Positions 23,243-57,766 are shown, counted from the first letter of the stretch. The stretch is DNA of 64,000 nt from Candidatus Latescibacterota bacterium (GCA_965248355.1 OZ252098.1:128001-192000), one strand, 5' to 3'. The notes: generated by a model not told the origin, from the letters alone. Numbers and translations: made by a program.

Positions 23243-25090
23243 ATGAAGAAGGCGATCCTGCTGCTGTGTTCCGGACTGGTCGGGACGGCCGCGGCAAACG
23301 ACTTCGGCCAGTCGAACCCCGACTGGCAGGGTTTCGACGTCCACTGGAAGGGTGGTGCGCCGACGGTGCTGAAGCTCTCGACCCAGGACATGAACCACAC
23401 CTTTGACGGTTCCCCGGTCGAGATCCCCTTCACCATCGAAGGCGTTCCCACGGCCATGGTCTATCTCGCCGTGTACACCCTGGATGCCAATCCCCAGTAC
23501 GGCGGAGAGCCTTTTGGGGTGGGAGGCATCGAACAAAGCCTGATCCGCGCCGCCGGCGTGGATACCATGGTCTACATCAGTGCCGGAGATCGGTTCGACG
23601 CGGGCTCGAACACCATCACCTGGGACGGCACGGATTACAACGGCAGCCAGGTGGCTGCCGGCGTCTACAGGACCTACCTGTTTGCCATCGACGTCGACTC
23701 CCCGCCCACCTACGCGGGCGGGACCATGGCCCCGTGGCAGAACTCGGTGATCGACGACCAGAAGAGTCCCCCGGAAATCTGGTTCGCCCAACAGTTGGAG
23801 GGCGCGTGGCACATCAGGGTGAGCGAGATGGGCACCGACCTGCTCGCCAACCCCGAGGCATTTGAGACCTTCGCCATCCCGTGGGTCAACGCGGTCCCCC
23901 AGGAGAGTGGTGCTGACTGGAAGGACGTCGGCTACTTGCAGATGGATCCGGCCGAGGATAACGTGGCCTACGTCATCCGCTTCCAGAACCCGCCGGGCGG
24001 CCTGTACCGGGCGATCATCGATCGCGAGGCGGGCACCGCGCTGCTCGACGAGAGCTGGGAGAACTCCGACGGCGGGTACATCGCCATGGAGGTTCGCGGC
24101 ATCACCACCATGGTGACCAACGCCCGCCATCATCCCTGGGTGGCCGACGACGGCTTGCTCTACGCCACCGTCGCCGACCACGTGGAGCCCTACGGTTCGC
24201 CAGGTCCGGCGGTGCAGAGATTCGACCGCGCCACGGGGGAGCTGGTGGACGTCCTGTCGTTCCTCGACTACTTCCCCCAGGCTTACAACGACGAAGGCGC
24301 CCCCAGGAACTTCAAGTCGATAGCGGGGTTTGACGTCGACGAGACAGGCTACTACGGGACCAGTTACCTCGGCCGCCCGGGAGCGGGTCCGACGAAGACC
24401 GATCTCGACCTCAACCTGGTCTGGAAGAACCAGAACGGCGACTTCTACCTCGATTACTACACCAGTGACGAGAGGGAGGCCCTGGGGATCCCTTCAAACA
24501 TCCCGATAAGCATATTGGCCGCCCGCTGGGGGATCAGCTTCGTCGGCGGCTGGGAGGCGCCTGAATGGGCCACGGTCCTCGGACCCGACGGGTTTGGTCT
24601 GTTCAAGCTCAACCTGGGAATCCATATGCCCCCGGGCGCACTCGGCGGCATCGCGATGTTGATGGACAACGACAACGAGGCCGACGGTCTGTACATCGGC
24701 GTGGGAGCTGGGCCGTATCTGGCACACTTCCCCATGGACATCGCCCGGGCGAGGGTGGGGGAGGGCCTGACCACGGACGTCCAGGAGCTGGAGGGGGCGG
24801 CAACGCCCGGCGCCTTCGCGCTGGGTGATGCTTTCCCGAACCCCTTCAACCCTGAGACGACCGTCCGCATCGCCGTCCCCGAACTCGACGAGTCTGTGAC
24901 CCTGACCGTGCACAATGTGGCCGGTCAGGAAGTGGCCAGATTGGTGGACCAGGTGCTGGATGCCGGTTCCTACCACGTCACTTGGGACGGCACGGATTCT
25001 CAGGGCGTCAAGGTCGGCAGCGGGGTCTATGTCTTCCGGATGGTCGCCGGGAGTTTTACCGAGAGCAGGCGCGTAACTCTGCTGAAGTAA
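23243..25090 (+). CDS. Secreted protein with N- and C-terminal FlgD-Ig-like motifs and a T9SS type-A-like C-terminal domain
   Basis: Signal peptide; TITWDGTDYNGSQVAAGVY near the N-terminus; C-terminal AFPNPFNPET..HNVAGQEVARLV..VTWDGTDSQGVKVGSGVYVFRM..RRVTLLK. Confidence 0.82.
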   Translation: MKKAILLLCSGLVGTAAANDFGQSNPDWQGFDVHWKGGAPTVLKLSTQDMNHTFDGSPVEIPFTIEGVPTAMVYLAVYTLDANPQYGGEPFGVGGIEQSLIRAAGVDTMVYISAGDRFDAGSNTITWDGTDYNGSQVAAGVYRTYLFAIDVDSPPTYAGGTMAPWQNSVIDDQKSPPEIWFAQQLEGAWHIRVSEMGTDLLANPEAFETFAIPWVNAVPQESGADWKDVGYLQMDPAEDNVAYVIRFQNPPGGLYRAIIDREAGTALLDESWENSDGGYIAMEVRGITTMVTNARHHPWVADDGLLYATVADHVEPYGSPGPAVQRFDRATGELVDVLSFLDYFPQAYNDEGAPRNFKSIAGFDVDETGYYGTSYLGRPGAGPTKTDLDLNLVWKNQNGDFYLDYYTSDEREALGIPSNIPISILAARWGISFVGGWEAPEWATVLGPDGFGLFKLNLGIHMPPGALGGIAMLMDNDNEADGLYIGVGAGPYLAHFPMDIARARVGEGLTTDVQELEGAATPGAFALGDAFPNPFNPETTVRIAVPELDESVTLTVHNVAGQEVARLVDQVLDAGSYHVTWDGTDSQGVKVGSGVYVFRMVAGSFTESRRVTLLK

Positions 25091-25130
25091 GCGGCCAGCG
25101 GGCGTCTCTGTTGAGAGCAGCCTGATTCGG

Positions 25131-25170
25131 AAATGGGTGGCCGGTGAAAGCCGGCCACCCATTTGTTTCT
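25131..25170 (+). terminator. Intrinsic terminator or stabilising hairpin after the first operon gene
   Basis: Perfect 14-bp stem AAATGGGTGGCCGG / CCGGCCACCCATTT, TGAAAG loop, 3' end running into T-rich TTTGTTTCT. Confidence 0.75.
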
Positions 25171-25190
25171 ATCGGCAAGGGAAACCGCCT

Positions 25191-27263
25191 GTGACGTCTA
25201 TCCGCTTCACCTTTCTGATCGGGCTCTGCTGCACGGGTGCGGTGACCGCGCAGACGTGGGAGCAGAGTTCGTGGCGCAGCATCACCTACTACCGTTCCAA
25301 CTTCGTTTCCGCCGCCGCTCTCGAGGGCCAGCTCCACGTGGCCGCCGTGGACAGCTACGAGGTCTACTTCAACGGCGTGCTCCTCGGCGGGGATTCTCTC
25401 GGTACCCGGATGCAGGCCTATGCCGTCCAGGTCCAGGACGGATCGTCGGGGAATGACCTCGCCGTGAAGGTCGTCAACCACGGCGGCGGCACCGGCAACG
25501 GCCTGATCGCCGCGGTGGCCACCGACGAGTACCGGATCGAGACGACCACGAACCAGGTGGTGCAGAGGTGGTACTGGACGGCTGGGGAGCAGCAGGGCCT
25601 CGAGTGGACGACGGCCGATCCCGAGGACGATCCGGCGTGGCAGACCGTGCAGCAGGGATGGGTCGAGCGCGATCGGATCCAGGACCTGCTCGACGCGGAG
25701 ATCGAGATCGTCTCCGGGTTTCTGTCGGGGATCGACGCGGGGGCCCGGCAGGGAAGCCTGGTTCTCAGTCAGATCCGCGGCCAGAACCTGGCCCTCGACA
25801 AACCGGGCAACCGTCTCGAGGTCGTGGACGGAAAGCTGAACACCTCCTGGGACCCGCCCACCACTGCCCTCAACTACTCAGCCAGTGTGGACCTGCAAGT
25901 CCGGCGCAACGTAAGCAGCGTCCGCGTCATCACCAGAGGAAGCAACCCCGGGCAGCTGGAGGAGAATTCGCTGAGGGGCTACTCGGTGCAGGTCAGCGAC
26001 GACCGGGTCCGCTGGACCGAGGTGGGCGTCATCCACGATATCGAGAAGTTCGACTGGACCGAGGTGCGCTTTACGCCGGTCTGGACCCGGTATGTACGTA
26101 TCGTAATAGTTGATATCAACTCCGTGAGCCCTCCCAAGGTCGCCGAGGTGGAGATCTACGGAGACGGGTACACCGATGAGGGCACATACCTCTCCGAGCC
26201 GCTCTCCCTGGGCGCGCCCGACCAGGCCAAGAATTTCGGCCGCGTGCGCTGGGATGCCGAGGTCCCCGAGCGTACGGACCTCTTCGTTCAGTTCCGGACG
26301 GGGACCTCCCCGGCGGACTTCGAGGATCCCGAGCGGGGGTGGAGCACCCCCCTGTCAGGCGGAGACGTCTGGTTCCCCGCCTCGGAGCCGGGAGCCTGGC
26401 TCCAGTATCGGGTCGCCATGGAATCCAGGGACCAGCGGCGCACGCCGGCCTTGCACAGCATCGAGCTGGACTACACTACCGCGGAGATCGCCGTTTCCGG
26501 CGCCCACTCGCGGGTCTCGCCCAACCGCGTGTCCATGGGTGCGGACACCCTCTTCGTGTGCACTCTGGACCTGGTCTTTGCCCCCGGTGACGCGGGGATC
26601 GAGCGGCTCCGCATCGACGTCCCCAGCGAGGCCCGGCTGGTCGACGACGGTCAGCTCCAGGGGATCCTGGCGGACTGGACCTCCACGCAGGATGCGCTGG
26701 AGCTCACCTTCTCCGAGCCGGTGCGCGACATCGACCAGTTGCTGATACCCTTTCGGGCCCGCTCCCATGCGAACAGCCACGAGTTCCGCGTGTTTCTCTT
26801 CAGCCCCGGGTCGGACAACCCCGTCAACGTGGCCGAGAGCGTCGGTCTGGACGAGACCACGGGTGATCCCTTCTCCTGGGCGGTGGTTCCCACGACCTCC
26901 CGCAAGGATGCCCTGTCGAGTGTCCGTGCCAATCCCTCCGTCTTCACACCCAACGGCGACGACATCAACGACGATACCGTCATCGAGTTCATTCTCAGCA
27001 AGGTCGACACGCCCCGTGACCTGGGACTGCGCATCTTCGACCTCCGGGGCGCCCTGGTGCGCGATCTGAAGCCGGCCCCCCTGGCGGCTGGTGTCTACCT
27101 GCGCCTCACCGGCAGCGGGGCGCGAGGCATCGTCCCCGGATACTGGGACGGCAGGGACGACGAGGGCCGGCTGGTGCCGCCGGGCAACTACATCTACCGC
27201 GTCCAGGTGGAGCTCGATGCCGCGAGCGAAACCGGCACCGGCGTCGTAGGGGTGGTTTACTGA
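25191..27263 (+). CDS. Secreted protein with a discoidin (F5/8C)-like domain and a T9SS type-B/CHU_C-like plus FlgD-Ig C-terminus
   Basis: GTG 25191; signal peptide; NLALDK..VVDG..TSW, VDL, YSVQVSDD..W, TRYVRI..AEVEIYG; C-terminal NPSVFTPNGDDIND..RIFDLRG..WDGRDDEGRLVPPGNYIYRV. Confidence 0.78.
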   Translation: MTSIRFTFLIGLCCTGAVTAQTWEQSSWRSITYYRSNFVSAAALEGQLHVAAVDSYEVYFNGVLLGGDSLGTRMQAYAVQVQDGSSGNDLAVKVVNHGGGTGNGLIAAVATDEYRIETTTNQVVQRWYWTAGEQQGLEWTTADPEDDPAWQTVQQGWVERDRIQDLLDAEIEIVSGFLSGIDAGARQGSLVLSQIRGQNLALDKPGNRLEVVDGKLNTSWDPPTTALNYSASVDLQVRRNVSSVRVITRGSNPGQLEENSLRGYSVQVSDDRVRWTEVGVIHDIEKFDWTEVRFTPVWTRYVRIVIVDINSVSPPKVAEVEIYGDGYTDEGTYLSEPLSLGAPDQAKNFGRVRWDAEVPERTDLFVQFRTGTSPADFEDPERGWSTPLSGGDVWFPASEPGAWLQYRVAMESRDQRRTPALHSIELDYTTAEIAVSGAHSRVSPNRVSMGADTLFVCTLDLVFAPGDAGIERLRIDVPSEARLVDDGQLQGILADWTSTQDALELTFSEPVRDIDQLLIPFRARSHANSHEFRVFLFSPGSDNPVNVAESVGLDETTGDPFSWAVVPTTSRKDALSSVRANPSVFTPNGDDINDDTVIEFILSKVDTPRDLGLRIFDLRGALVRDLKPAPLAAGVYLRLTGSGARGIVPGYWDGRDDEGRLVPPGNYIYRVQVELDAASETGTGVVGVVY

Positions 27264-27291
27264 GAAGCTTCCGCTTCCTGTCTGGCTTGAC

Positions 27292-30147
27292 TTGGCAACC
27301 GAGGTCTCCGAGACGACGAACGGGACGGGTGATGAGCCTGGAGGGGTCGCGCCTGTCCTGGAGGTCGGCACCCGGGACGCCCACCGAACCGCGCTCTCGG
27401 TACCGCCGAGCGTCGAGCAGATCACCGCGGATCGTGCGGGCATCCTGATCGCCCGTGGCAGCCGCCCAGCCGGTCTGGAGCCCGCCGCCGGAGGCGGCGG
27501 ACGGACCGCGCGCAGGGCGGTGGCGGGTCTTGCCCTCTGGATGCTGGCGGGCAGCTTGGCCGAGCCCTGCCTGGCGCAGCGCTCCCCCGAGGACTACTGG
27601 TCGGGCCAGCAGGAGTTCCTGAACCGGGAGCTGCGTCCGCTCTGGGAGGAGCGCTACGAGAACTACAGCTTCCTCAGCTACCGGGACTACGGATTCCGGC
27701 CGGAGCGTCCCACCTACGATCCCTTCGGCTCCTACCTGGTCGACGGGGTGGAGATCCTGCGGATCGAGGAGTACGGCACCCTGGACCCCGCACGCAGCAG
27801 CAGGGTGCCCGGTTGGGGGCTGGGCCAGTTCCGCAACATGGTGGTCCTGCGCGACGCCTTCGGCGGCTGGTCGACCCGATTCATGATCGGCAACCTCCTG
27901 GACGGCCGGTTCACTCCCCTGACCCTGAACCTGTCCCGTCTGGAGGGGCTCCGCTGGGACGCGTCCTCCCACCGCAACAGCTTCTCCCTGATCTCGTCCC
28001 GCGTGCCCCGGCCGCTGACGGGTGCCCGACACTTCACCCACTACCTCTTCGGAGGACACTGGAGCAGCCAGTTCGGCGACGTCCTGACCTTCGGCGCCTC
28101 CTACGTGAACCTCCACCTGCAGGATGCCTCCCGGCGAAACACGAGCCTGCGCGGAGACGTCCCTTCGCGCCTGACCGGCACCTCGTCATTCTACCTGGTC
28201 ATCAGCGACGATTCGCCGGAGGACGACCACGGTGTCGATGTGTACGCCGTGGAGCTGTACGCCGATCAGCAGCGGCTGGACGTGGACCCCGAGGTGAAGC
28301 TGATCCCTCACGTGGTGGAGGTGAGTGAGGTCTCCCATATCCGCCGGGACGGAGCGTGGGCACCCCGGATCTTCAACGCCGACCGGATTTTCGTCGAGCG
28401 CACGGGGCTCTTCGCCAGGGAGGGCATCCCCCTCGTCGGGCCGTTCCCGCTCCAGGTGGGCGGCACGGACCTGCTGGTACTGCGCTACGAGGTGCCCGGT
28501 GATCCGCAGAGCCTGCAGTTCCGGGTGCAGGTGGCCGGAGACTACAGCCTGGACGTGGGCGCCGCCTATGGCTTCTTCGGCGGCGGCACGTCGCTCTGGA
28601 GCGACTGGCACAACGTCGAGCGGGCGCCTGGCAATGTGCAGGACGGGTCCAACATGGGCTGGGTCACCGTCGACTACGGCTTCCCCACGGGGATGGTCCA
28701 GTTCGGCAGCACGGTGGAGGCGGAGATCGGCGGCGCGAACCTGGAGGCGGAGTACATCAGCAACGTCCAGCACGCCCGTTTCCCCTTCGTGGGCCGCCGC
28801 GACAGCCGCGCCACGAGCGCCTGGTACGTGCGTCTCCTGCAGGAATGGTCCCTCGCGGACGTGGGGTTGGAGCTATTCGACGTCCCTCCGACCTACCAGG
28901 TCTCGTTGCCCGTGTGGTCCGAAGGCGAGCAGGCTGTCCTGCCGTGGGAGCTGGTGGAGGACAACGACGACAATGACGAGTGGCCGGACAAGGTGGAACA
29001 CTGGGATCCTCTGGACCCCGTCTACGTCGCCTATGCCAACGCCTCGGGAATCGACGTGGACGCCCTCCGACCCGATGCGGCCGGCGACTATGGTCTGGGC
29101 GGAGGGCACGGGGTCTTCCCGGGCCTGGATCAGGACGAGGACGGGGTGGTGGACACCAACGTCAACCGCAACCAGTTCCCGGACTATCTCGAGCCCTTCC
29201 TCATGTACTATGTCGAGCCGGACGACTTCGTGTACGGGGAGGACTTCAACAACAACGGCGTGGTCGACGTGCGCGAGAACGACAACAAGCCCGACCTCCC
29301 CTACGACCTGGACAGTCGGGGCTACCACGGCTTTGCCTCCCTGCAACCCCTCGAGGAAGTAGGGTTGCGTCTCGGACGGTACCAGGTCCGGCAGCGAGCG
29401 GCGGCTGGCAGGAACGAGGTGACCTACGGCGAGCTGGCCTACACGGCAGAGGGGAGACAAGCGGGCCGGTTTATCGCCCGCTGGCGCCTCAAGCGTATTC
29501 GCGACGACATAGCCAATCCCCTCTACGAGGCGGTGATCGAGCCCCTGACCCAGGTCAATGTGGCCATTCGACCGCGGCCCGATCTCATGCTGATGGAAAA
29601 CAGCCTCGTGAGCACCTTCTTCGGAAAAGGGCATTACACCGGCATCGAAGGCCTGAACGTGATCCAGGCGGCCAAGGTCGAGTGGAACAACCGCAGGGAC
29701 AGCCGGCCGGGACTGGGGGACGATATCGTGGACTGGAGCCTCGTGAGCAAGGCCGACTACGCCCTTGTCAGGGGCGGGCTGACCCTGAGCCCGATGGTGA
29801 AGTTCACCCTGCGGCGGAGGTCGGCGCCCGATGATCTCCTCATGCCCCTGCAGAGCCAGGAGATCATCCCCATTCTCCGGGCCGACTATGCGCTGAGTGA
29901 GCACACAACCCTCCGCGCAGGCGTGCAGGGACTGCCGTGGCACCACCGGTTCCGCGATGCCAAGGCGCCGTCAAGGGACTTCGACGCCCGCCACTACATC
30001 GTGGTCATCCAGAACCTGAGCAACTACACCGGGTACGACGTGAGCACGAATCTCGGATTCCGGTCCAGCCGCTCGGAGTTCGTCAAACTGCCGAGCCGGC
30101 GGACCCAGCGGCTCAGCGAGTTCTTCATCCAGGCGCGGATCCTCTAG
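27292..30147 (+). CDS. Large exported protein of the same family as copies A/B (putative OM barrel with Ca-binding-like insert)
   Basis: YDPFGSYLVDG, RFTPLTL, GNVQDGSN, EDNDDNDEWPD..GVFPGLDQDEDG..DTNVNRNQFPDYLEPF; ends FFIQARIL. True start uncertain (signal-like segment near 27510-27580). Confidence 0.75.
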   Translation: MATEVSETTNGTGDEPGGVAPVLEVGTRDAHRTALSVPPSVEQITADRAGILIARGSRPAGLEPAAGGGGRTARRAVAGLALWMLAGSLAEPCLAQRSPEDYWSGQQEFLNRELRPLWEERYENYSFLSYRDYGFRPERPTYDPFGSYLVDGVEILRIEEYGTLDPARSSRVPGWGLGQFRNMVVLRDAFGGWSTRFMIGNLLDGRFTPLTLNLSRLEGLRWDASSHRNSFSLISSRVPRPLTGARHFTHYLFGGHWSSQFGDVLTFGASYVNLHLQDASRRNTSLRGDVPSRLTGTSSFYLVISDDSPEDDHGVDVYAVELYADQQRLDVDPEVKLIPHVVEVSEVSHIRRDGAWAPRIFNADRIFVERTGLFAREGIPLVGPFPLQVGGTDLLVLRYEVPGDPQSLQFRVQVAGDYSLDVGAAYGFFGGGTSLWSDWHNVERAPGNVQDGSNMGWVTVDYGFPTGMVQFGSTVEAEIGGANLEAEYISNVQHARFPFVGRRDSRATSAWYVRLLQEWSLADVGLELFDVPPTYQVSLPVWSEGEQAVLPWELVEDNDDNDEWPDKVEHWDPLDPVYVAYANASGIDVDALRPDAAGDYGLGGGHGVFPGLDQDEDGVVDTNVNRNQFPDYLEPFLMYYVEPDDFVYGEDFNNNGVVDVRENDNKPDLPYDLDSRGYHGFASLQPLEEVGLRLGRYQVRQRAAAGRNEVTYGELAYTAEGRQAGRFIARWRLKRIRDDIANPLYEAVIEPLTQVNVAIRPRPDLMLMENSLVSTFFGKGHYTGIEGLNVIQAAKVEWNNRRDSRPGLGDDIVDWSLVSKADYALVRGGLTLSPMVKFTLRRRSAPDDLLMPLQSQEIIPILRADYALSEHTTLRAGVQGLPWHHRFRDAKAPSRDFDARHYIVVIQNLSNYTGYDVSTNLGFRSSRSEFVKLPSRRTQRLSEFFIQARIL

Positions 30148-30149
30148 CC

Positions 30150-32861
30150 ATGGCGGTGAACAAGGGCCTTGGCGCTGCCGCTCTGCTGACCGGGTGGCTG
30201 ATGCTGTCCCCGACGCCCGGTGTGAGCCAGCTCCTCTACGAGCCGGTCCGAGACTATGAGCAATACTACGCCCGCACAGGGTACAGGGAGTACACCGCCT
30301 CCTTGTGGTCCCAGGTTCGGGCCCCCGTCTTCGACGAACTGGGCAACTTCCTCCTCGACGGCACCGAGATCTGGCGCAGCCAGGAGACGCGTCCCATGGA
30401 GCGGGACCCCGGGAGCCTGTTGAACAAGGACCCCCAGTTCCGGTCCCTCGTGGGCAACCTCGTAGTGGCCCATGATACCCACAAGGACTGGGCCAGCCGG
30501 CTGATGGTGGGGAACCGGATACGGACCAAGTTCACTCCCTTGACCCTGGACCTGGCCCAGTTGAACGGGATCCGCTGGGACGTGGATCTCGGAGGCACAC
30601 AGGCCACCTTGGTGTCGTCGCGCTTCGACTGGCCGATCTACAACGACGACGACAACGCCTTCCACATGTCGAGGAACGAACCGACCAACCTGCTGGGCGG
30701 TCACCTCGCGCACAGGGCGGGAGCCCTCAGGGTGAGCCTCTCCTACGCCAACCTCCTGCGCACCGACAGCTTCGTCGGCTTTGGCGACAACAGCCTCAAG
30801 GGCGTGCTGCCTTCGCGGCTGAAGAATCCGCCCGCCTACCTCGCCGTCAAGATCAGCGATGGCTCGGAGGACGACGGCCGTGGCGCGCGGGTCTACGATG
30901 TTCGCATCGAGGGGCCCCTCAACGACCGCGTGGAAGTCAGCGTGACGCGCCACGACGCCGATGTGGTGAATCCGAACTTCCCGAATGGGGACAGGCTCTT
31001 CCGGCCGGGCTTCACGATTCCTCCCTACGTCGAGTTCCTCAAGGGGGACCTGACCCTGGAGGACCCCGGCGCCCAGGGCTTCCTGGAGGCCAACGGGAGA
31101 GAGTACCTCATCTACTGGTTCAAGATCCCCCAGGAGATGCGCGACGAGGTCGAGTCCGTTCGCTTCAACGCCATGGTGGCCAACGACTACCGCATCAGTC
31201 TGTCCGAGGTCTTCCTGCCCGCGGCGACGGCCACCACCAGCAATCCGGACATCCGGATCGTGCGGGCCACGTTCTTCCGCGACGTGGCGGCCCAGGAGGG
31301 GAACGTGGGCGACATGGGCAATCTGCGCCGCGTCTCCTTCGAGTACGGCCGCCAGAGCGGCCGTACCACGGGCAGCCTGCGCCTGGAGCTGGACCGTGAG
31401 GGATTCCAGGTGCGCGGGGAGTACGCTCGCAGCTTCAATTACCTCCAGTATCCGAGCACGATCGGGCGGAGCCGCTGGCGCCGGGAGACGGCGGATGCCT
31501 TCTTCGTCCACGCCAAGAAGCAGCTCGGATGGTTTCGCCTGGCCGGCGAGTACTTCCGGATGGACCCCCTGTACAGCACTTCCCTCTCCGTCCAGAGCAG
31601 GGAATACTGGACCTATTCCGATGACCTCGGCAGTCCCTTCATCGGAGAGGTCTTTCCCAACTGGCAGGACGGGTACAACGACACCGTCATCCTCGACACG
31701 GTGGACGACAACGACGACAAGGACCTGTGGCCCGATTTCCATTTCCTCAACAAGCACTTCGGCGATCGGGACGGCGTCTTCCCGGGACTCGACCGGGACC
31801 AGGACGGCCGGACCGATGTCAACGAGAACGGCAACGGCGACCCCGACTACAACGAGCCCTTCCTGCTCTACAATGTCGATCCGCTGGAGTACGACTACGG
31901 CGACGACATGAACAACAACGGGGTGATCGATCACCGCGAGGACGACTTCCGGCCGGACTACCCCTATCCGACGGACAGAAAGGGGTATCACCTCTTCGGC
32001 TCCATCGAGCCTGTGGAGGCCCTGGACCTGAGCCTGGGGCGCTACCATGTCCGCGAGATGTGGGGACCGGGCGAGAACCGCGTCAACTACGCGCGCCTGA
32101 ACTATCGGCGTACCCTCTTCCCCTATGCCTCGATCGACTTCTCCGACTTCCTCAAGCGGGTCCACGACGACATCGCCGACGATTCGCCCCAGTTCGGCTT
32201 CTTCACGCCCCACGGGCTGCCGGTCGATCCCACCTCGATCGCGAGCGTCCGCGGTGTGACGGAGGTCGAAGACCCGCTGCTGATGAGGAACAGCGTCGTC
32301 AACACGGCCCACCTCGACGCCACCTTCATCCGGGTGAAGGGCCTGGAGATCAACAGCCGCCTCAAGCACACGGTCAATCTCCAGCGTGCTTCCGTCCTTC
32401 AGCCCGCCGACACGATCCAGGAATGGGCGTGGGTACTGCGCAGCGGCTACACCTGGAAGCGGGACCGGTGGACGGTCACGCCCAGGGCCAAGTACATGGC
32501 CTACCGGCGCCGCGGCGGCGACGTGCAGGTCCATCCCGTTTCCGAACGCTACTTCTACCCCATGGTGGTGGCCACGGTGGCCCTGTCGCCCCAGACCAGC
32601 CTGAGCGCGGGGGCCCAGGGTTTCCCGTTTCTGTCCAGCACCTACAGGAACCTGATCAACGACAAGGTCGACTACGGCAGCAGGGACTACATCGTCTCGA
32701 TCACCAACCGCACCACGTACGAGGGCTACTACCTGACCCTGAACGCCGGATACCTCGCCAAGACGCTTCGATTCGAGGACAGGAGCCGGAAGCCGCTCGA
32801 TATCGAGCGCTCGCTGCTCTATGTCCGGCTGCTGCTGGGACTGGAGCCCTTCGAAGGATGA
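30150..32861 (+). CDS. Large exported protein of the same family (putative OM barrel with Ca-binding-like insert)
   Basis: ATG 30150 two bases after the upstream stop; signal peptide; FDELGNFLLDG, KFTPLTL, DDNDDKDLWPD..GVFPGLDRDQDG..NENGNGDPDYNEPF; ends LYVRLLLGLEPFEG. Confidence 0.8.
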   Translation: MAVNKGLGAAALLTGWLMLSPTPGVSQLLYEPVRDYEQYYARTGYREYTASLWSQVRAPVFDELGNFLLDGTEIWRSQETRPMERDPGSLLNKDPQFRSLVGNLVVAHDTHKDWASRLMVGNRIRTKFTPLTLDLAQLNGIRWDVDLGGTQATLVSSRFDWPIYNDDDNAFHMSRNEPTNLLGGHLAHRAGALRVSLSYANLLRTDSFVGFGDNSLKGVLPSRLKNPPAYLAVKISDGSEDDGRGARVYDVRIEGPLNDRVEVSVTRHDADVVNPNFPNGDRLFRPGFTIPPYVEFLKGDLTLEDPGAQGFLEANGREYLIYWFKIPQEMRDEVESVRFNAMVANDYRISLSEVFLPAATATTSNPDIRIVRATFFRDVAAQEGNVGDMGNLRRVSFEYGRQSGRTTGSLRLELDREGFQVRGEYARSFNYLQYPSTIGRSRWRRETADAFFVHAKKQLGWFRLAGEYFRMDPLYSTSLSVQSREYWTYSDDLGSPFIGEVFPNWQDGYNDTVILDTVDDNDDKDLWPDFHFLNKHFGDRDGVFPGLDRDQDGRTDVNENGNGDPDYNEPFLLYNVDPLEYDYGDDMNNNGVIDHREDDFRPDYPYPTDRKGYHLFGSIEPVEALDLSLGRYHVREMWGPGENRVNYARLNYRRTLFPYASIDFSDFLKRVHDDIADDSPQFGFFTPHGLPVDPTSIASVRGVTEVEDPLLMRNSVVNTAHLDATFIRVKGLEINSRLKHTVNLQRASVLQPADTIQEWAWVLRSGYTWKRDRWTVTPRAKYMAYRRRGGDVQVHPVSERYFYPMVVATVALSPQTSLSAGAQGFPFLSSTYRNLINDKVDYGSRDYIVSITNRTTYEGYYLTLNAGYLAKTLRFEDRSRKPLDIERSLLYVRLLLGLEPFEG

Positions 32862-35668: not shown

Positions 35669-35747
35669 GATCTTCCTCCCGGTGGCGACAGGGCGGGCCG
35701 CAGCGGGGCGGCGCGTCTCAACCGCACGCAGTCCGAGGTAACAGCCC

Positions 35748-40228: not shown

Positions 40229-40262
40229 CCCGGCCTCCTCGAAGGGGGGTGCTCCAACGACC

Positions 40263-41510: not shown

Positions 41511-41512
41511 CC

Positions 41513-42355: not shown

Positions 42356-42362
42356 TTCCGCC

Positions 42363-46768: not shown

Positions 46769-46777
46769 GAGGGCGCC

Positions 46778-48588: not shown

Positions 48589-48605
48589 CCAGAGAGGGTG
48601 GTCTC

Positions 48606-49298: not shown

Positions 49299-49313
49299 AG
49301 GGAGGCCCGGGCG

Positions 49314-49754
49314 ATGGCCAAGAAGAGGGTCTTCCACAGCCTGACATTGCGGGCGAGACCGCGCAAGAGCCCCTTGCCCGACGTGACCCCCCTGGTGAAC
49401 GTGGCGCTGGTCCTGCTCATCGTGTTCATGGTGGTCATGCCCATCATCCAGGAGGGCATCCGCGTCGATACGCCGGAAGCCGTGAACCTGACCGAGATCA
49501 CCGAGCAGGGCCAGGAGCACGTCGTCATCTCCTGCAAGGAAGACGGGAGGCTGTACCTGAACATGCGCGAAGTGCCCCTCGAAGGCCTGCGGGAAGAGCT
49601 GGCCAGGGAGTACCGGGGCAAGGAGCACCTTCCCGTCGTCATCAAGGGTGCTCGCAACCGTCCCTACAGCGATATCCTCCAGCTGATCGAGATCTGCCAG
49701 AACGCGGGCGCCTCCGGCGTCGAGCTCATGGCCAGGAAGAAGGGGGGAGGCTGA
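49314..49754 (+). CDS. exbD: ExbD/TolR family protein (TM Asp replaced by Asn)
   Basis: PDVTPLVNVALVLLIVFMV, then VDTPEA, VVIKG...PY.....I. Confidence 0.88.
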   Translation: MAKKRVFHSLTLRARPRKSPLPDVTPLVNVALVLLIVFMVVMPIIQEGIRVDTPEAVNLTEITEQGQEHVVISCKEDGRLYLNMREVPLEGLREELAREYRGKEHLPVVIKGARNRPYSDILQLIEICQNAGASGVELMARKKGGG

Positions 49755-49755
49755 C

Positions 49756-50148
49756 ATGTACACGACGAAGAGCACCCAGTCCGAGTCGACGATCAACGTC
49801 ACCCCTCTGGCGGATGTATCACTCTCCCTCCTGCTCGGGTTCATGGTCATCACGCCGATCATCTTCCAGACGCTCTCGGCAACCCTCCCCCAGGGGGCGG
49901 GCACGGCTTCGGGCCAGGTCAAGCCGGACCCGATCGTGGAGTATACGGCGGACAAGCGCATCCTCCTGGATACGAAGGAGGTCACCATGGAGGAGCTCCT
50001 GCGCAAGATCGACGAACTCTACCCACCTGGATCCAAGGCCAGCCGCAAGGTGATGTTCACGGGCTCCGGCGAGCTTCCGTACGACGAGATCATCACCTTC
50101 CTGGACCAACTTCGGGACCACGGGGTCGAGACCATCGGCATACGATGA
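49756..50148 (+). CDS. exbD: ExbD/TolR family protein (canonical TM Asp)
   Basis: INVTPLADVSLSLLLGFMV, LPYDEII..LD....GV..IG. Confidence 0.88.
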   Translation: MYTTKSTQSESTINVTPLADVSLSLLLGFMVITPIIFQTLSATLPQGAGTASGQVKPDPIVEYTADKRILLDTKEVTMEELLRKIDELYPPGSKASRKVMFTGSGELPYDEIITFLDQLRDHGVETIGIR

Positions 50149-50549
50149 GAGATCATGGGCCGCCCATGGAAGTCCCTTGCCACCGCCTTCGGGGATGGCT
50201 CTCCGAGGGAGACCCCAAGCCGGCCCGTGCCCCGCGGGACGGAGAGAAGGCCTCCACCTCGGCACGGGCTTTGCGGGGCTGCCGGGCGACGAGGCGCCAT
50301 GGCCGCCCTTCCATGGCCAGGACTCCCCCGGCCGGCCCGGAGACGACGCGACCCGCGACCGGTTCGCCGCCCGCCATGGCAGCCTGTGCGACGGTGGCGG
50401 CCCCCCTTAGCGCGACGCGTCGACCACCAGGACCGGCGGCGCGACCGCTCCAAGGCTCCCACCCTTCCTTGTTGCCTCTCCCCGGGTTGCCCCCTGCAGG
50501 ATCGAAAGTGCCTTAGATTCTCTGTCTCCACTCTTCGACGGAGTCGCGC

Positions 50550-51374: not shown

Positions 51375-51393
51375 GCCGCGGCTGACCCCTCCG

Positions 51394-54300
51394 TTGGCTC
51401 CCCGTCTCCTGGCCGTACTCGGTGCGCTGGCCGCGGCGGCGGTCCTGCTGCTGGCGACCCCGGCCGGCGTGTGGCTCGCGGCCCGCGCGGCCGAGTGGGC
51501 GGCCGGCTCCCGAGGTTACTCCCTGCTCATCGGCGAGACCGGCGGCGCGCTCGTCGCGTCGCCGCGGTTCGGCGATCTGCAGGTGGGGATCTCCGAGGGG
51601 CTCGAGGCCCGGGTGGAGGAGCTGGTCCTGCACCCGTGGGACCGGCGCCTGTCGCTGCGGTCGCCCACGGTCCGCTGGCGCCCGGAGGCCGGAGCGGCCG
51701 GCGCCGACACGGCCGGAGCTCCCGCCCCCGGCGCGGCGCCGCTCCTGCCGCTGGCCGGCCTGCCGGAGATCGACATCTCCGGGGGAGTCCTGGAGCTCAA
51801 GTCCGGCGACGGCCCGTCCCTGGAGCTCCGGGGCATCGAGGCCCACCTCGGGGCCGCGGGACCGTCGGAAGCCGGGCTCGACCTCTCGGCCGAGTCCTGG
51901 TCGATGGTCTCCGGCTCGATCTCGGCCGAAGGCCGCTTGCGCTCGCGCTGGCGGCTGGGGGAGAGACAGGTGCAACTGGACGAGGCGCGGGTCGACTGGG
52001 CGGCCGCCGGCGTGGGCGAGGGCACGGTGCGAGGCCGCGGGAGAGTCGATCTCGGTCCCGGCATGGACGTGGACGCCCACCTGACGCTGGAGGGCCGGGT
52101 TGGATCGCTGCAGGTGGGTCGGCTCGAGGTGAGCGCCCGGGGACCGGCGTCCCCGGCGCGGCTCCAGGTGCGCGCCCTCGGAGAGGGGAGCGAAGCGGCT
52201 CTCGGGGAGATCGGCCTGGTCCTGGCGGGTCTCGTGGACACCTCGGGAATCCGGGCCGACTCGCTCCGGCTGCAGGTCGCCGGCGGCACCCTCCTGGGCC
52301 GCGGCGGCTACCGGCCTGGGCCCGCGAGCCTGGGAGTGGAGGTGGAGCTCCGGGACATCGATCTGGGGCGCCTGCCCATGGAAGGCTGCGCCGGCATCGT
52401 GAACGGCCTGGTGACCGTGGACGGGACCGTCGCCGACCCGCGGGTCTCCGTGGCGCTGAGGTCTGCGGGGCTGGAGGGGGTCGCCCCCGAGCCCGTCGAT
52501 CTGACCCTCGGCGGATCGCTCGAGGGCGGAGAGCTGAGGCTGACGGCGCGCAGCCGCCGTCTCGGTGAGCTGACCGCCTCGGGGGACCTGTCGCCGCAGA
52601 CCGGGCGCTACGACCTGCAGCTGTCCGGCGATCTGGACCTCGGCCCCTGGCTCGGTTCGGCCCTGCCCGCGTCGGTGCGCGGTCGCTGGCGGCCGGAAAC
52701 CCTGGACGTGCGGCTGCAGTCGGAGCGGCTGCCCTTCGGGCTCGGCCTGCCCGGCCCCCTGGTGGCAGACGCGACCCTGCGCGATTTCCGCCACCTCGAC
52801 CTCACGCTGAGCCTCGGTACGGGCCAGTTGAGCGCCCGTCTGGGCACCGACCTGAGCTCTCCGCAACTCGACACCCTCTCCGCCGCGGCCCTGGGTGTGG
52901 ACCTGTCCCAACTGGCCGCGATGGTCGAGGGAGAGGCGTCGGGAAGCGCCGCTGTCGACGGTCTGCTCGGGGAGGACGGCCGGGGCGGCCTGCAGCTGCA
53001 GGTGGACGATCTGCGCCTGGCCGGATGGAGCCTGGGCCCAACGAGCCTGGCCGCCGACTACGTTCGGGGCGCCATCGAGCTGTCGGCCGAGGCTCCGGGC
53101 GTCGATATGCAGGCCCGGGTCGACACGGCGGGGCAGACCCGGGTGCAGGCCTCCCTGCAGGACGCGGTCCTGCGGCGGGTCGGCGCCTCGGATTCCGTGC
53201 GGGTCCGCGGCCGGGCGTCCGCCGCCGGCAACCTGCACGACCCGCTGGCCGGTTCCCTCGATGTGCGCATCGACGAGGCGGCGGCTTCCGTCGGCGGCTG
53301 GCCTCTGGCGCTGAGCCCCTCCGTCCTCGAGTACGCGGACGGCCGGGGCCTCCTGCATCCCAGCCTCCTGCGCACGCCCCTGGGCGAGGTTCGCCTGTGG
53401 GGAGAGGTCGACGACGGCCATCTCGACCTGACGGCGGCCCTGGACTCCGTCGAGTCCACGGGCCTCGCGGACCTCACGGCCCGGGGGCGCGCCACCCTGC
53501 GGCTGGAGGGCGCTCCCCTGGCGCCGGACCTCGCCCTGCGGGCGGACCTCGAGGACCTCGCTCTTCACGGACGCCCGATCGGCGCCCTGAGCGCGGCCCT
53601 GGACCTGCGCGACAGCCTGCGCGCCTCCCTCGAGCTGCGGCAGGACACCTCCCGAGCCGTTCAGCTGGACCTTCGTCTGGAGTCCCCGGCGACGGCTGTC
53701 CGCGGAGGGCCTGCCGGGGGCGGCGACAGTCTGAGGATGCGGCTGCGGGCCGAGGGGCTCGACGCATCCTGGCTGGCGACCCACGTCCTCGAGGACTCCA
53801 CCGGTCTCAGGGTGAGCGCCGAGGCGGATCTCTCCCTGCCGGCGGGACAGGTGCTCGAGGGGTTCAACTGGGTCGATCTGGCGGGGAGCCTCCGTCTGAG
53901 CGAGCTGACCATGGACCGGGAGCGCCTGCGCCTGCGTCTCCCCGAACCGGCCGCCGCGCACCTGGCGCGCGGCGAGGCCCGAATCGATGGGCTCGAGCTC
54001 CCCGTCCTGCTCTTCCGGCGGGACCCCGGCCGCTTCGAGAAGGCCGGCGCCCTGAGTCTGGAGGCTGGACCCGGGGAGGGTGGAGAAGGGGTCCGGCTTC
54101 GCCTGACGGACCTGGATCTGGAGGCGGTGTCCATGGCGATTCCGGGCCGGCCCGACCTGCCGGCGGGCCGGATCGACGGGAGCCTGGAGCTGATCCTCCT
54201 CGACGCAGGGGCCTCCGTGGGCGCTCAGGCCTGCGCCGACCTGGAGGGCCTGGGCTACCTGGAGGCGCGTCTGTGGTCCGGCGCCGGGCGCTGGACCGCC

Positions 54301-55698
54301 CGCGGCGCCTGGGTGACTCCGGTGGAGGACAGCCTGGTGGTGACGGCCGCCGTCCCCCTCGCCGAGGGCCAACCCTCGTGGGAGGGCCTGTCCCTGGCGG
54401 CGCGTTCCGACGGCATCGATCTGCTGATCCTGCTCGACCAGGTACCCCTCGAGAGCCTGTCGGGCCGGGTCCGGCTCGATCTGAAAGCCGATTCTCTCCA
54501 TGCCCGGCCGAGGATCGCCGGCCAGGTGGAGGTCGAGGACCTGGGGTTCTCCCTGATCGACATCCGCCCGGGGTACCGCTTCCCCCGGGGCCGTCTCGTC
54601 CTGGAGCCGAAGGCCGGGGGCGGGACCCGGGGCGATCTGGTCGGCCTCCAGGGCGGCCCCACCCGGGGGCCCGGGCGCCTGCAGCTGCAGGGATGGATCG
54701 ACGTGGCCACCCTGGAGGATATCGACTACGAGCTGCGCCTGGGGGTGGACGACCTGACCAGCAGTTACAGCGATATCTTCGAGGCCCAGAAGGTCGATCT
54801 CGACCTGGCGCTGACGGGCGAGCCGCAGGGCTCCCTGCTGAAGGGAAGCATCGGGCTCCACCGGGCCGTGGCGGAGGTCCAGCTCGTGGACCTGACCGAC
54901 CCGGTGCCCCCGCCGCCGGCCGTGCGGAACCCGCTCCTCGGGGGGGTCGGGATGGACGTCTACGTCGACATCGTGGAACTGAAGTCGCGGTCCGAGCTCT
55001 CCGACATCGACGTGGATGGGCGGGTGCGGGTCTACGGGACGTTCTACAAGCCCCGGTTCCAGGGAGAGCTGGAGGTCACCGAAGGCACGGTGATCCTCCT
55101 CAGCCGTCCCTTCACCTTCACCCGGGGGCGCGTCGTCCTCGACCGCCTGGTGCCGACCCATTCGATCCTCGACCTGGTCTACGACCCCGTCCTCCTCGAT
55201 CCAGAGCTCGACCTGGAGGCGGTCACTCGCGTGCAGGTCGCCGGCGAGGACGAGGAGCGGGTGGTGACCCTGAATCTCCAGGGGACGGTGCTGGCCCCTG
55301 CTCCGGAGCTGACCTCTGACCGTCTCGCGCAACCGCAGATCATCGGGCTCCTCGCCTTCGGCACCATCAACCAGAACCAGTACAACTACTCGGGAGCCCT
55401 GTACACGGCGGCCGGGCAGTTGCTGCTCGGCCGGGTGCAGAAGGCCGGTCTCGACGAGTTCCTGCTGCTGCCCTCGGGGACCGCCCAGGGCACCATCGGG
55501 GAGACCACCATCCGCATCGGCAAGCGTCTGACCTGGCCCCTGCCCATGTGGGTCCGCTACGAGGCGATCACCAAGGACCCCTCCCTCGGCCAGTTCGAGG
55601 TCGAGTACGGCATCACTTCCTGGCTCCAGCTCGAGGCCACCGCCCACTCCCAGTACGAGCTCTACGGCATGGGTCTGGGGGTGAGCAAGGACTTCTGA
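51394..55698 (+). CDS. tamB: Translocation/assembly module TamB-like protein
   Basis: N-terminal TM; long amphipathic beta-repeat body; C-terminal L.L.G...P..G.L.V..G...F...G.V..DPELDLEA..L.G...PEL.S; directly upstream of an Omp85 gene. Confidence 0.8.
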   Translation: MAPRLLAVLGALAAAAVLLLATPAGVWLAARAAEWAAGSRGYSLLIGETGGALVASPRFGDLQVGISEGLEARVEELVLHPWDRRLSLRSPTVRWRPEAGAAGADTAGAPAPGAAPLLPLAGLPEIDISGGVLELKSGDGPSLELRGIEAHLGAAGPSEAGLDLSAESWSMVSGSISAEGRLRSRWRLGERQVQLDEARVDWAAAGVGEGTVRGRGRVDLGPGMDVDAHLTLEGRVGSLQVGRLEVSARGPASPARLQVRALGEGSEAALGEIGLVLAGLVDTSGIRADSLRLQVAGGTLLGRGGYRPGPASLGVEVELRDIDLGRLPMEGCAGIVNGLVTVDGTVADPRVSVALRSAGLEGVAPEPVDLTLGGSLEGGELRLTARSRRLGELTASGDLSPQTGRYDLQLSGDLDLGPWLGSALPASVRGRWRPETLDVRLQSERLPFGLGLPGPLVADATLRDFRHLDLTLSLGTGQLSARLGTDLSSPQLDTLSAAALGVDLSQLAAMVEGEASGSAAVDGLLGEDGRGGLQLQVDDLRLAGWSLGPTSLAADYVRGAIELSAEAPGVDMQARVDTAGQTRVQASLQDAVLRRVGASDSVRVRGRASAAGNLHDPLAGSLDVRIDEAAASVGGWPLALSPSVLEYADGRGLLHPSLLRTPLGEVRLWGEVDDGHLDLTAALDSVESTGLADLTARGRATLRLEGAPLAPDLALRADLEDLALHGRPIGALSAALDLRDSLRASLELRQDTSRAVQLDLRLESPATAVRGGPAGGGDSLRMRLRAEGLDASWLATHVLEDSTGLRVSAEADLSLPAGQVLEGFNWVDLAGSLRLSELTMDRERLRLRLPEPAAAHLARGEARIDGLELPVLLFRRDPGRFEKAGALSLEAGPGEGGEGVRLRLTDLDLEAVSMAIPGRPDLPAGRIDGSLELILLDAGASVGAQACADLEGLGYLEARLWSGAGRWTARGAWVTPVEDSLVVTAAVPLAEGQPSWEGLSLAARSDGIDLLILLDQVPLESLSGRVRLDLKADSLHARPRIAGQVEVEDLGFSLIDIRPGYRFPRGRLVLEPKAGGGTRGDLVGLQGGPTRGPGRLQLQGWIDVATLEDIDYELRLGVDDLTSSYSDIFEAQKVDLDLALTGEPQGSLLKGSIGLHRAVAEVQLVDLTDPVPPPPAVRNPLLGGVGMDVYVDIVELKSRSELSDIDVDGRVRVYGTFYKPRFQGELEVTEGTVILLSRPFTFTRGRVVLDRLVPTHSILDLVYDPVLLDPELDLEAVTRVQVAGEDEERVVTLNLQGTVLAPAPELTSDRLAQPQIIGLLAFGTINQNQYNYSGALYTAAGQLLLGRVQKAGLDEFLLLPSGTAQGTIGETTIRIGKRLTWPLPMWVRYEAITKDPSLGQFEVEYGITSWLQLEATAHSQYELYGMGLGVSKDF

Positions 55699-55699
55699 G

Positions 55700-57766
55700 G
55701 TGAGGCGCGGCGCCCTCCTTCTGTGTCTGGTCCTGTGGGGGCGGGCCGAGGCCCAGGGCTCCCTGCGGGCGGTACAGCTGCGCGATCTCGGCGAGCCGGT
55801 GGTGGAGCGCATCCACTTCGAGCATCTGCAGGTCAAGCCGATCACCAACCACGAGTTGCGGGCGGCGATGACGACGCGGGAAGGGGAACGCTTCCAGGCC
55901 CGGTTCTACCGCGCCGACCTGTCGGAGATCGAGAACCTCTACCGCAGCCGCGGGTTCATGGACGTGGACATCGTCCGGCGCCGGTACTACCTCGACGACA
56001 AGGGCCGCCTGCAGCTGCACCTGTGGATCGACAGCGGCCGGCAATGGCGGCTCTCCGCGGTCGATATCGAGGTGGCCCCGGGGAAGGCGGCGCTGCCCGA
56101 CCTGGAGTCGCGGGTGGGCCTGCGAGCCGGGGACGTGCTGCGCTACGGCGACGTGCTGCGCGACGAGCGCGCCCTGCTGGGGCTGCTCAACGCGGAGGGA
56201 TTCCCCCATGCCGCGGTGCGCAACCGGCTGGACTTCGACGCCCGGCGGCACCTGGGCTCGGTCACCTTCGAGGTGACTCCGGGGCCGAGGATGTACTTCG
56301 GCCCCATCCGCTTGACGGGGGAGGATCTCCAGACCCGCCGGTCGCTGATCGAAAGCAGAATCACCTTCCGCGAGGGAGCCCTCTACGACCCGGAGGCCGT
56401 GCGCGCATCGAGGAACAACCTGGCCCGCACCGGCCTGTTCCGCTCGGTGACCCTGGAGACGCCGGAGCAGGCCGCCGGGGACAGTGTGCAGCCCGTGGTC
56501 CTGCAGCTGCAGGAGCGCCCCTTCCGGCACCTGGGGGCCCGGGCCTTCATCAACAACAACGAGCCCGGCCTGTCGGCAAAGGTGCTGCACTCGAACTTCC
56601 TCGGCCGGGGCAACCCCATCGGCACGGAGGCCAATCTGGGCCGACCCCGGCAGGGCCTGACCCTGTTCCTGACGGAGAACGGCCTGCTGGGATCCGACCT
56701 CGATCTGACCTTTACGGCGGGGATGACCGACGACTGGGGCCGCACCCGTGTGGAAGCCGATCCCGGCGACTCGGTGCAGTTCGAGCTCCTGGCGGCCAAT
56801 CACTCCAACGTCAACGAGTTGAACCTGAGTCCGTTCGCCGGCCCGCTGGAGGCGGCCGCCTTCGTATCCCTTCTGGAGTACCGCTACCCCTCGGTGAAGC
56901 GGCTCTGGCAGGCGAAAGCGAGCCTGGCGCGCCGCCGCCATGCCGAAGGGGTGAGGGTCTACCAGGCGTCGTTGACCGCGGACTGGACGCGCTTTCGCGT
57001 TCAGCCCCTCGCCGGAAGGCGGATCGACCTGGACGTGGGCGAGGTGGAGGAGGTCGAGGACGACGGCTTCGACGATGGCTTGGGCGACGATCCCTTCGGC
57101 GACTTCTCCGGGCGCCGCGCCCAGGGCGGGAGCGCCTTCCCCTACGACGACGGCTGGATCCCCATCGACGCCACGTGGCAGCGGCTGCTGACGGACCGCG
57201 CCAACACCCTGAACTTCGGGATCGACCTGCTGCGCGACACCCGCGACAACCAGATCGCACCGACGCGGGGCGACTTCGTGCGCCTGGCGGGCCTCTTCGC
57301 CTGGGAGTTCAGCAGGGACAGGACCCGGGTCCTGGCGGGCGAGGTCGAGGCCCGCAACTACCTGCGCATCCGTCCCTGGCTGGTGTGGGCCCACGCGCTG
57401 CGGGGGCGGGTGACCGGATCCCTGCGCCGCGACCGGGAGTTGCCCCAGCCGTACTGGATCGAGTTCGGGGGCGAGGGCTCGGTGCGCGGCGTCAACCGGG
57501 GCACGATCGCGGCCGTGGGCGGCGGCCGGGCCGGGATCAACCTGCGCAACGAGCTGCGCCTGCACCGGGGACAGTTCGGGCTCGTCGCCTTCTGGGACCG
57601 CGCCGGCGTCTGGCGCCGTCCCCGGGAGGCCGGCTGGGCCGGCATGGTCGACGGCTACGGCGGGGGCCTGCGCTGGGACCCGGGCCTGCCCATGCGGCTG
57701 GACGTGGGCTGGGGGAAGCGGTTCTCCAAGCCGTCGCCGTACCTCTCGGTGGGACACGCCTTCTAG
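55700..57766 (+). CDS. Omp85 (TamA/BamA) family outer-membrane assembly protein with POTRA domains
   Basis: POTRA-like motifs (Y.SRGF, GF..A.V, L.RTGLF.SV); DTRDN...PTRG; GG..SVRG; terminal YLSVGHAF. Confidence 0.88.
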   Translation: MRRGALLLCLVLWGRAEAQGSLRAVQLRDLGEPVVERIHFEHLQVKPITNHELRAAMTTREGERFQARFYRADLSEIENLYRSRGFMDVDIVRRRYYLDDKGRLQLHLWIDSGRQWRLSAVDIEVAPGKAALPDLESRVGLRAGDVLRYGDVLRDERALLGLLNAEGFPHAAVRNRLDFDARRHLGSVTFEVTPGPRMYFGPIRLTGEDLQTRRSLIESRITFREGALYDPEAVRASRNNLARTGLFRSVTLETPEQAAGDSVQPVVLQLQERPFRHLGARAFINNNEPGLSAKVLHSNFLGRGNPIGTEANLGRPRQGLTLFLTENGLLGSDLDLTFTAGMTDDWGRTRVEADPGDSVQFELLAANHSNVNELNLSPFAGPLEAAAFVSLLEYRYPSVKRLWQAKASLARRRHAEGVRVYQASLTADWTRFRVQPLAGRRIDLDVGEVEEVEDDGFDDGLGDDPFGDFSGRRAQGGSAFPYDDGWIPIDATWQRLLTDRANTLNFGIDLLRDTRDNQIAPTRGDFVRLAGLFAWEFSRDRTRVLAGEVEARNYLRIRPWLVWAHALRGRVTGSLRRDRELPQPYWIEFGGEGSVRGVNRGTIAAVGGGRAGINLRNELRLHRGQFGLVAFWDRAGVWRRPREAGWAGMVDGYGGGLRWDPGLPMRLDVGWGKRFSKPSPYLSVGHAF

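Follow-up and report, generated by a model that had tools for sequence, protein, structure and literature searches.

A 64,000-nucleotide stretch of a Candidatus Latescibacterota genome (the window, G000:C1:128001-192000; single contig of 5.50 Mb, 68.9% G+C, 95.7% complete) carries a real, conserved and apparently undescribed gene cassette. Its core, at positions 22463-41510, encodes a small lipoprotein, surface proteins 1 and 2, three outer-membrane barrels (A, B and C), a giant tetratricopeptide repeat (TPR) protein, a DUF4159 protein resembling TonB and a conserved lipoprotein, and ExbBD motor genes lie farther downstream. We infer that the cassette most likely captures and imports nutrients. 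The original prediction, made from the sequence, had proposed a distinct trans-envelope machine spanning 23243-57766 that exports or anchors tailed proteins. Gene calls and Pfam/NCBIfam searches recovered every gene it had named. A distinct trans-envelope system with conserved gene order was borne out, in which an ExbBD motor and a TonB-like protein are combined with a TPR scaffold and with barrels that are not TonB-dependent transporters; it is smaller than that interval. A further barrel (D), the small lipoprotein gene and a hairpin after the first gene had been overlooked.

Fold and sequence of the barrels

Barrels A, B, C and D matched no Pfam family at E 0.01 and no NCBIfam family. A, B and C are mutually homologous paralogs that fall into fixed subfamilies. 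The AlphaFold2 model of barrel B, built from a 118-sequence alignment, had a pLDDT of 88 and a pTM of 0.87, with low confidence at residues 15-55. Its DSSP string, rather than its coordinates, gave 23 long strands over residues 104-898, or about 24 with the N-terminal strands. Counting back from the last strand under the usual barrel topology would place both inserts of B outside the cell. The Asp-rich insert is invariant.

The leading fold matches of B were outer-membrane barrels, none of them close. SlpA gave Z 13.8 with a root-mean-square deviation (rmsd) of 7.5 over 414 aligned residues and a TM score of 0.21, and FimD gave Z 12.7. Identity to SlpA-, MtrB- and FimD-type folds was about 10%, with rmsd 6-7.5 over less than half of the chain. 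Scanned against Pfam, six relatives of the barrels gave a weak SlpA_C match (E 8e-7 to 4e-5, 22-28 bits against a cut-off of 35); the same scan of the window proteins gave no SlpA_C match. Profile searches of solved structures returned nothing meaningful for the barrel or its first insert, and the ESM Atlas returned nothing but unnamed clusters for barrel B and leads below 0.9 for the cassette lipoprotein.

The barrel (PF00593) and plug families of TonB-dependent transporters (TBDTs) were not matched by A-D, while PF00593 finds 22 matches elsewhere in the genome. The predicted absence of SprA and of a TonB-dependent receptor thus holds for the window but not for the genome, which has SprA as well as these 22 matches. 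From its model, barrel B is confidently predicted to be an outer-membrane barrel of about 24 strands belonging to no known family; that fold searches list no close relative is not proof of its fold being new. The possibility raised at the outset that the paralogs of about 900 residues are soluble proteins is not supported by this model.

Conservation of the cassette

A barrel profile search gave 363 representatives at E ≤1e-30. Barrel relatives came mostly from Candidatus Latescibacterota, with some from Gemmatimonadota and single loci from KSB1 and Zixibacteria. Gene order was compared at 69 loci from other genomes, obtained from the best 80 of 586 candidates; related genomes among these are not independent samples. 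A, B and C occurred in order at 31 of the 69, and at 25-29 of these each surface protein, the TPR, the DUF4159 and the lipoprotein gene lay within 10 kb (TPR at 25, DUF4159 at 26, the lipoprotein at 25-26). Single-barrel cassettes are of the B type (eight loci) and all eight have the TPR gene. The KSB1 and Zixibacteria loci show a minimal form consisting of surface protein 2, a PorV-like gene, a single barrel of the B type, TPR, ExbB, ExbD, DUF4159 and the lipoprotein. Across relatives, the core of the predicted gene order is kept; the FGE, ATP-binding cassette (ABC) transporter and tamBA genes are neighbors.

Among 121 genomes of the phylum, a barrel was present in 69, a type-B-like type IX secretion system (T9SS) tail in 68 (38 candidates per genome scored) and the lipoprotein likewise in 68; in the other 52 not one of them was found. 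These genomes, too, are related to one another. All 68 lipoprotein-positive genomes were barrel-positive. The present genome holds 29 barrel open reading frames (ORFs) at 13 loci, five of which are class I cassettes (151k, 495k, 549k, 1574k and 1954k). At G000:C1:2469301-2473399, the barrel gene of a single-barrel cassette is split by an ORF (2470775-2472046) that is probably an insertion sequence; a near-identical ORF lies at 1925992.

Transducer, lipoprotein and motor

The N-terminal helix of the window DUF4159 protein contains S-V-A-L-H, so that the predicted TonB-type SxxxH anchor is real here, but the motif was present in only 13 of 35 DUF4159 rows (one row mis-windowed). The lipoprotein tail matched NF033768 (AgmX/PglI) at 53 bits against a cut-off of 40, and TonB C-domains in profile searches at E 3.5e-5. 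It is missing from many cassette lipoproteins. As DUF4159 is carried by the membrane anchor and the TonB_C-like domain by the lipoprotein, anchor and TonB_C are not in one chain.

The exbB-exbD-exbD genes scored best to TolQ/TolR, under cut-off. The window ExbB subfamily gave 23 matches in 16 of 45 family genomes. Nine copies, spread over six genomes, have an AgmX-tail lipoprotein gene 7-41 kb away, and in two cases the cassette's first gene is about 2-3 kb off; the remaining 14 matches, three of which are weak, fall on contigs where no partner is listed. At E 1e-30 the subfamily is absent from several genomes having such cassettes. In this genome, exbB is carried inside three of the five class I cassettes (549k, 1574k and 1954k), in two of the three with exbD too. 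The ExbBD motor is a loosely but repeatedly linked part of the cassette, and the linkage proposed originally is to be read in this looser sense.

In all seven subfamily copies examined, the conserved membrane Asp is replaced by Asn in ExbD1, and ExbD2 keeps the Asp. The Asn of ExbD1 points to a heterodimer that has a single protonatable site. The role of the ExbD membrane Asp25 is described in PMC11658791.

Barrel C as a variable subunit

Barrels C and D are 89% identical in amino acids and 94% in DNA, and the pair is also present in two same-genus genomes, making three genomes in all. In 708 columns with an invariant residue, synonymous changes gave 19, 23 and 23 genome-diagnostic sites compared with 2 gene-diagnostic sites. 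In total 37 residues separate every C from every D copy, and 34 of them fall in four patches. Mapped onto B, the differences occupy 28 of 139 outer-loop positions versus 17 of 307 strand positions. Because synonymous sites group by genome and not by gene, the sequences bear the mark of gene conversion, which would have homogenized C and D except in the four surface patches.

C-type barrels are the only barrels at 25 of the 69 loci (five assemblies). None of these 25 has surface protein 2, DUF4159, the lipoprotein or exbB, and ten have a propeller protein beside the barrels. In one genome, G052, 64 barrel matches (41 of them spanning at least 700 of 895 positions) were found versus two tails and one lipoprotein. 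These computations support C as the variable subunit, with duplication and surface diversification affecting this barrel type. Its expansion without cargo argues against the barrels being a one-to-one anchor for cargo. Many dispersed receptors per single motor set is the pattern of TBDT expansions, which the many C-type barrels per motor set resemble.

Proposed function

The best explanation, to which we give about an even chance, is an ExbBD-powered outer-membrane capture-and-import machine that is SusC/SusD-like in its working but is not a TonB-dependent receptor. We infer all steps of this mechanism. The two tailed proteins would be exported by the SprA/PorV/PorU T9SS of the genome and not by the barrels. 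At the surface, the propeller protein (probably in excess) and the CBM32 protein would bind ligands, probably glycans. Barrels A and B may make up a core into which any of several C-type barrels fits, one at a time, and the outer loops of the C-type barrel would set specificity. ExbB with the ExbD(Asn)/ExbD(Asp) pair is predicted to drive the DUF4159 protein, and this in turn may act through the TPR scaffold and the lipoprotein to open or load the barrel. DUF6785 membrane proteins, presumably with a transport role, lie within 15 kb of 8 of the 13 barrel loci in this genome (1 of 1097 shifts reached that) compared with 1 of 19 TBDT loci.

Several observations weigh against import. Neither a plug nor a TBDT family is matched by the barrels in the Pfam scan, which leaves the gating step of the putative importer unexplained. 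Catabolic genes beside stand-alone C barrels were seen without a background control, and the C-only loci come from just the five assemblies. In this genome, exbBD is missing from most of the eight loci classed as II or partial, and these loci have several tailed proteins per barrel, which fits surface display better. In family f10, 11 genomes with barrels lack DUF6785, and families without barrels have it, by which an obligate partnership is ruled out. Near the barrels of this genome, genes for DUF4838 proteins and sulfatases show no enrichment. TBDTs occur in 121 of 121 genomes; no trade-off with the barrels is visible, and that idea was rejected. Two barrel-positive genomes have no SprA match (G015, 96% complete; G038, 80%).

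A wider version of the import model is possible though doubtful. The cassette would be a further ExbBD-type motor machine beside Ton, Tol and Agl, in which an A-B-C hetero-oligomer uses an exchangeable C receptor homogenized except in its ligand loops, together with lectin-like proteins delivered by a T9SS without known PorL/M. It would then be the main selective nutrient route in several uncultured lineages within the Fibrobacteres-Chlorobi-Bacteroidetes (FCB) group.

Surface proteins and their export

Surface protein 1 matched FlgD_ig (E 6.6e-19) and TIGR04183 (26.3 bits, cut-off 23), which gives it a type A tail. Its model (pLDDT 77.7) has a propeller with Z 20.6 and rmsd 3.6 over 261 aligned residues, and the top Foldseek match was PorZ. 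Surface protein 2 matched PF00754 (E 9e-14), with CBM32 and lectins in profile searches; its tail, at 26.4 bits for CHU_C (cut-off 27) and 18.8 for TIGR04131 (cut-off 35), is type-B-like and below both cut-offs. Genome-wide, 22 ORFs end in [ST]WGx[ILV]K, one of them at 200360 (equivalent to 72 kb in window numbering), and several adjoin class II barrel loci. This ending is a possible third sorting signal.

The hairpin between the two genes had z -4.32 relative to 200 shuffles, and a hairpin with a T-run follows the first gene in all five class I cassettes. Because it follows the propeller gene, it suggests that the propeller protein is made in excess. A promoter search found no sigma-70-like promoter. 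Contigs from four sponge metatranscriptome runs of one study cover 24-26 of the 30 bins of 22400-42399. First-gene contigs had higher depth figures and end near the hairpin in three runs, yet one contig crosses it; such contigs can neither rank genes nor show transcription.

SprA, five PorV-family genes and two PorU genes scored over cut-off elsewhere in the genome, outside the window. GldL, GldM, GldN and PorP (PF11751) gave no match in the genome, but no positive control rang and divergent forms are possible; GldK/PorK gave none over cut-off, and the window barrels did not match PF11751. A T9SS elsewhere, which the original prediction had named as an alternative, is thus found as to SprA, PorV and PorU and not detected as to PorK/L/M/N. 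Of the phylum's 121 genomes, 119 have SprA, among them every one of the 52 that lack barrels, and GldM was over cut-off in none of the 121. The tailed proteins therefore have a translocon independent of the cassette and probably leave through SprA rather than through these barrels, contrary to the proposed export by the locus. The 52 SprA-positive genomes without a cassette also rule out the cassette as a general T9SS motor. In Bacteroidota, the T9SS needs an energy input to release cargo from the translocon (PMC10994853).

Two PorV-like genes (G000:C1:233334-234194 and 909376-910236) are identical at 860 of 861 bases, and one lies inside a cassette between the lipoprotein and TPR genes. The pair is a candidate dedicated shuttle for the type-B-like tail. 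At G000:C1:4121189-4128701 and 4773860-4780405, a large receptor-like gene, a large secreted protein gene and a PorV-family gene stand in a row. These rows may be T9SS-type proteins paired with ordinary TBDTs, in parallel to the cassette.

Alternative explanations

Anchoring of type-B-like cargo on the barrels is a live rival, though we think it rather unlikely. The barrels would be large stand-ins for PorP/SprF that anchor the cargo after SprA export, and the motor would load or move them. In this genome, a barrel is found within 10 kb of 27 of 29 type-B-like tails but of 8 of 96 type-A-like ones. Across the phylum the tail occurs together with the barrel, PorP/SprF had no match in the genome (with the missing positive control noted above), and Bacteroidota anchor their type B cargo on cognate barrels (PMC9143113; PMC12618676). 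Nevertheless, a PorV-like gene stands between cargo and barrel in L024, L025 and L041, so that the carrier role is filled there; C-type barrels expand without type-B-like cargo; and one genome (G003) has barrels and no tail match.

A force machine of the Agl-Glt kind, with motor, TPR scaffold and three barrels moving surface adhesins for gliding or surface transport, is improbable. The shared logic is one TolQ-like and two TolR-like proteins, TPR, three barrels and a TonB_C-like domain (PMC11761067); the AgmX/PglI tail is over cut-off and the PorL/M motor was not detected. However, apart from the tail, no Glt family was matched: the Glt models gave no listed match for the TPR protein or the barrels, and GltG reached 35 bits (cut-off 650) over the tail only. 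The membership in Agl-Glt suggested originally is not supported, as no Glt homolog is over cut-off. The tail is also optional among cassette lipoproteins, and five parallel cassettes with dozens of dispersed C barrels are ill-suited to one motility engine.

More improbable still is secretion of the tailed proteins by the barrels themselves, through ExbBD and independently of SprA. Ton-powered secretion through a barrel has a precedent in Oar/PopC (PMC6434023), and the two barrel-positive genomes without a SprA match would fit it. Against this are the SprA, PorV-family and PorU genes of this genome, the 88 of 96 type-A-like tails far from barrels and the 52 SprA-positive genomes without barrels. 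The least probable proposal, that SlpA-like porins organize a calcium-stabilized surface layer with the motor serving only for assembly, would fit the best fold match (Deinococcus SlpA), the weak below-cut-off SlpA_C match of six relatives and the invariant Asp-rich insert, but the SlpA match is generic (TM 0.21, rmsd >7) and the maintained C/D patches and stand-alone C expansion would be left unexplained.

Layout of the locus and neighboring genes

The features are listed in Table 1. Downstream of the core are the FGE gene, the GDSL-like gene, the minus-strand BNR gene, three sugar ABC transporter genes and exbB-exbD-exbD. A 401-nt gap parts exbD2 from the tam block, in which a gene of no family precedes tamB-tamA. 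The predicted co-oriented run is correct for the core genes, but the BNR and ABC genes intervene and only two ATGA/GTGA overlaps occur (B/C and TPR/DUF4159), with one TTGA among the ABC genes; the other junctions are mostly small gaps.

Table 1. Features of the locus, in window coordinates
Feature	Position	Strand	Remarks
Barrel D, stand-alone second C-type barrel	19499-22405	-	Divergent from cassette; start uncertain; 89% amino acid identity to C
Small predicted lipoprotein, 165 aa	22463-22960	+	No family; homolog in 14/31 A-B-C loci
Surface protein 1, 615 aa	23243-25090	+	Ig, six-bladed NHL-like propeller, type-A-like T9SS tail; FlgD_ig/TIGR04183
Terminator-like hairpin	25131-25164	+	Between surface proteins 1 and 2; 15-bp stem, T-rich tail
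Surface protein 2	25191-27263	+	CBM32/F5-8C lectin-like domain; type-B-like (CHU_C-like) tail ending V-x-Y
Barrel A	27292-30147	+	First in-frame TTG taken as start (uncertain); homolog of B and C
Barrel B, core type	30150-32861	+	About 24 strands (model); beta-rich insert 205-400; Asp-rich insert 472-609
Barrel C, variable subunit	32858-35668	+	C/D-diagnostic patches at residues 172-192, 416-432, 561-574, 716-739
TPR scaffold, 1083 aa	35748-38999	+	TPR families; N-terminal hydrophobic helix
Candidate TonB-like transducer	38996-40228	+	Membrane helix with SxxxH, linker, DUF4159 domain (PF13709, E 1.5e-27)
Conserved lipoprotein	40263-41510	+	Here with C-terminal AgmX/TonB_C-like domain (NF033768)
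FGE-sulfatase-like lipoprotein	41513-42355		Not part of cassette
GDSL-like ORF	42363-45365	+	Neighbor
BNR gene	44253-45374	-	Neighbor, between lipoprotein and exbB
Sugar ABC binding protein and two permeases	45356-48588		Without ATPase gene; directly upstream of exbB
ExbB/TolQ	48606-49298	+	PF01618
ExbD1	49314-49754	+	PF02472; Asn replacing conserved membrane Asp
ExbD2	49756-50148	+	PF02472; membrane Asp kept
Secreted protein, 274 aa	50550-51374		No family match; flanks tamBA
TamB	51394-55698		Neighbor
TamA/Omp85	55700-57766		Neighbor
YihY/BrkB membrane protein	57769-58782		Flanks tamBA

Three neighbors were excluded from the cassette. The FGE lipoprotein, first taken to be PorK/GldK-like, scored 73.9 bits against a cut-off of 350, over its C-terminal part only, and FGE occurs in 2 of the 69 loci. 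A FGE-like gene also follows a tailed protein at G000:C1:4414300. The tamBA genes, likewise claimed as part of the machine, lie within 10 kb at none of the 69 loci and are far from cassettes in other genera. TamA is present in 41 of 45 family genomes and tamB-tamA is mostly single-copy; TamA adjoins the cassette in two same-genus genomes and is distant or on another contig in G047, G069, G070, G074 and G078. The sugar ABC transporter is a neighbor only; the arrangement of binding protein and two permeases upstream of exbB is repeated in G098.

The GDSL-like ORF is open antisense across the entire BNR gene (about 1.1 kb), as it is in G098 and G119, and codon-position GC points to its tail being a mere shadow of BNR. 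On the other side of the cassette, positions 4365-19495, adjoining barrel D, encode three DUF4838 proteins, a FG-GAP protein and a DUF6785/6784 membrane protein, a cluster that looks like a glycan-use island. Two of the three DUF4838 proteins share DNA patches 74-77% identical.

Significance and comparison with known systems

To our knowledge, TBDTs are essentially the sole known route of energized selective uptake over the outer membrane. If the import model is true, this view would be broadened by a second, ExbBD-coupled family of barrels that has modular receptors, and DUF4159 would gain a role. Barrels C and D, near-identical proteins differing in four loops, offer a direct test. With SprA present in 119 of 121 genomes and no PorM detected, one may ask how type IX secretion is powered outside Bacteroidota. 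In the open full text searched (supplements not covered), the cassette system is not described; DUF4159 appears in one Pfam paper, and Latescibacter together with T9SS in none.

The cassette resembles Ton/SusCD systems in its ExbB/ExbD motor with a protonatable membrane Asp (ExbD2), its putative surface binding proteins, its large barrels and its many putative receptors per motor, as well as in a single-pass transducer with SxxxH in some copies. It differs in having no TBDT or plug match, a predicted count of about 24 strands, two large inserts and three fixed barrel types. In addition, DUF4159 replaces TonB_C, a giant TPR protein is present, and the binders are T9SS cargo rather than lipoproteins. 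The TBDT barrel has 22 strands.

With the T9SS type B systems that use PorP/SprF (SprB-SprF and PG1035-PorP) it shares a tail class linked to cognate barrel genes, and SprA, PorV and PorU. Unlike those, its barrels are of about 900 aa and gave no PorP match, PorK/L/M/N were not detected, it has motor genes of its own and its barrels expand without cargo. The barrels SlpA (Deinococcus), MtrB and FimD are the nearest folds of B (Z 12.7-13.8 for SlpA and FimD), a generic barrel likeness only.

The Agl-Glt apparatus of Myxococcus is similar in layout, with a TolQ-like and two TolR-like proteins, a TPR scaffold, three barrels and an AgmX/TonB_C-like domain, although the TolQ/R layout is not unique to Agl. 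The cassette, by contrast, has no Glt homologs but the tail, carries that tail optionally and on a lipoprotein, and occurs in multiple copies.

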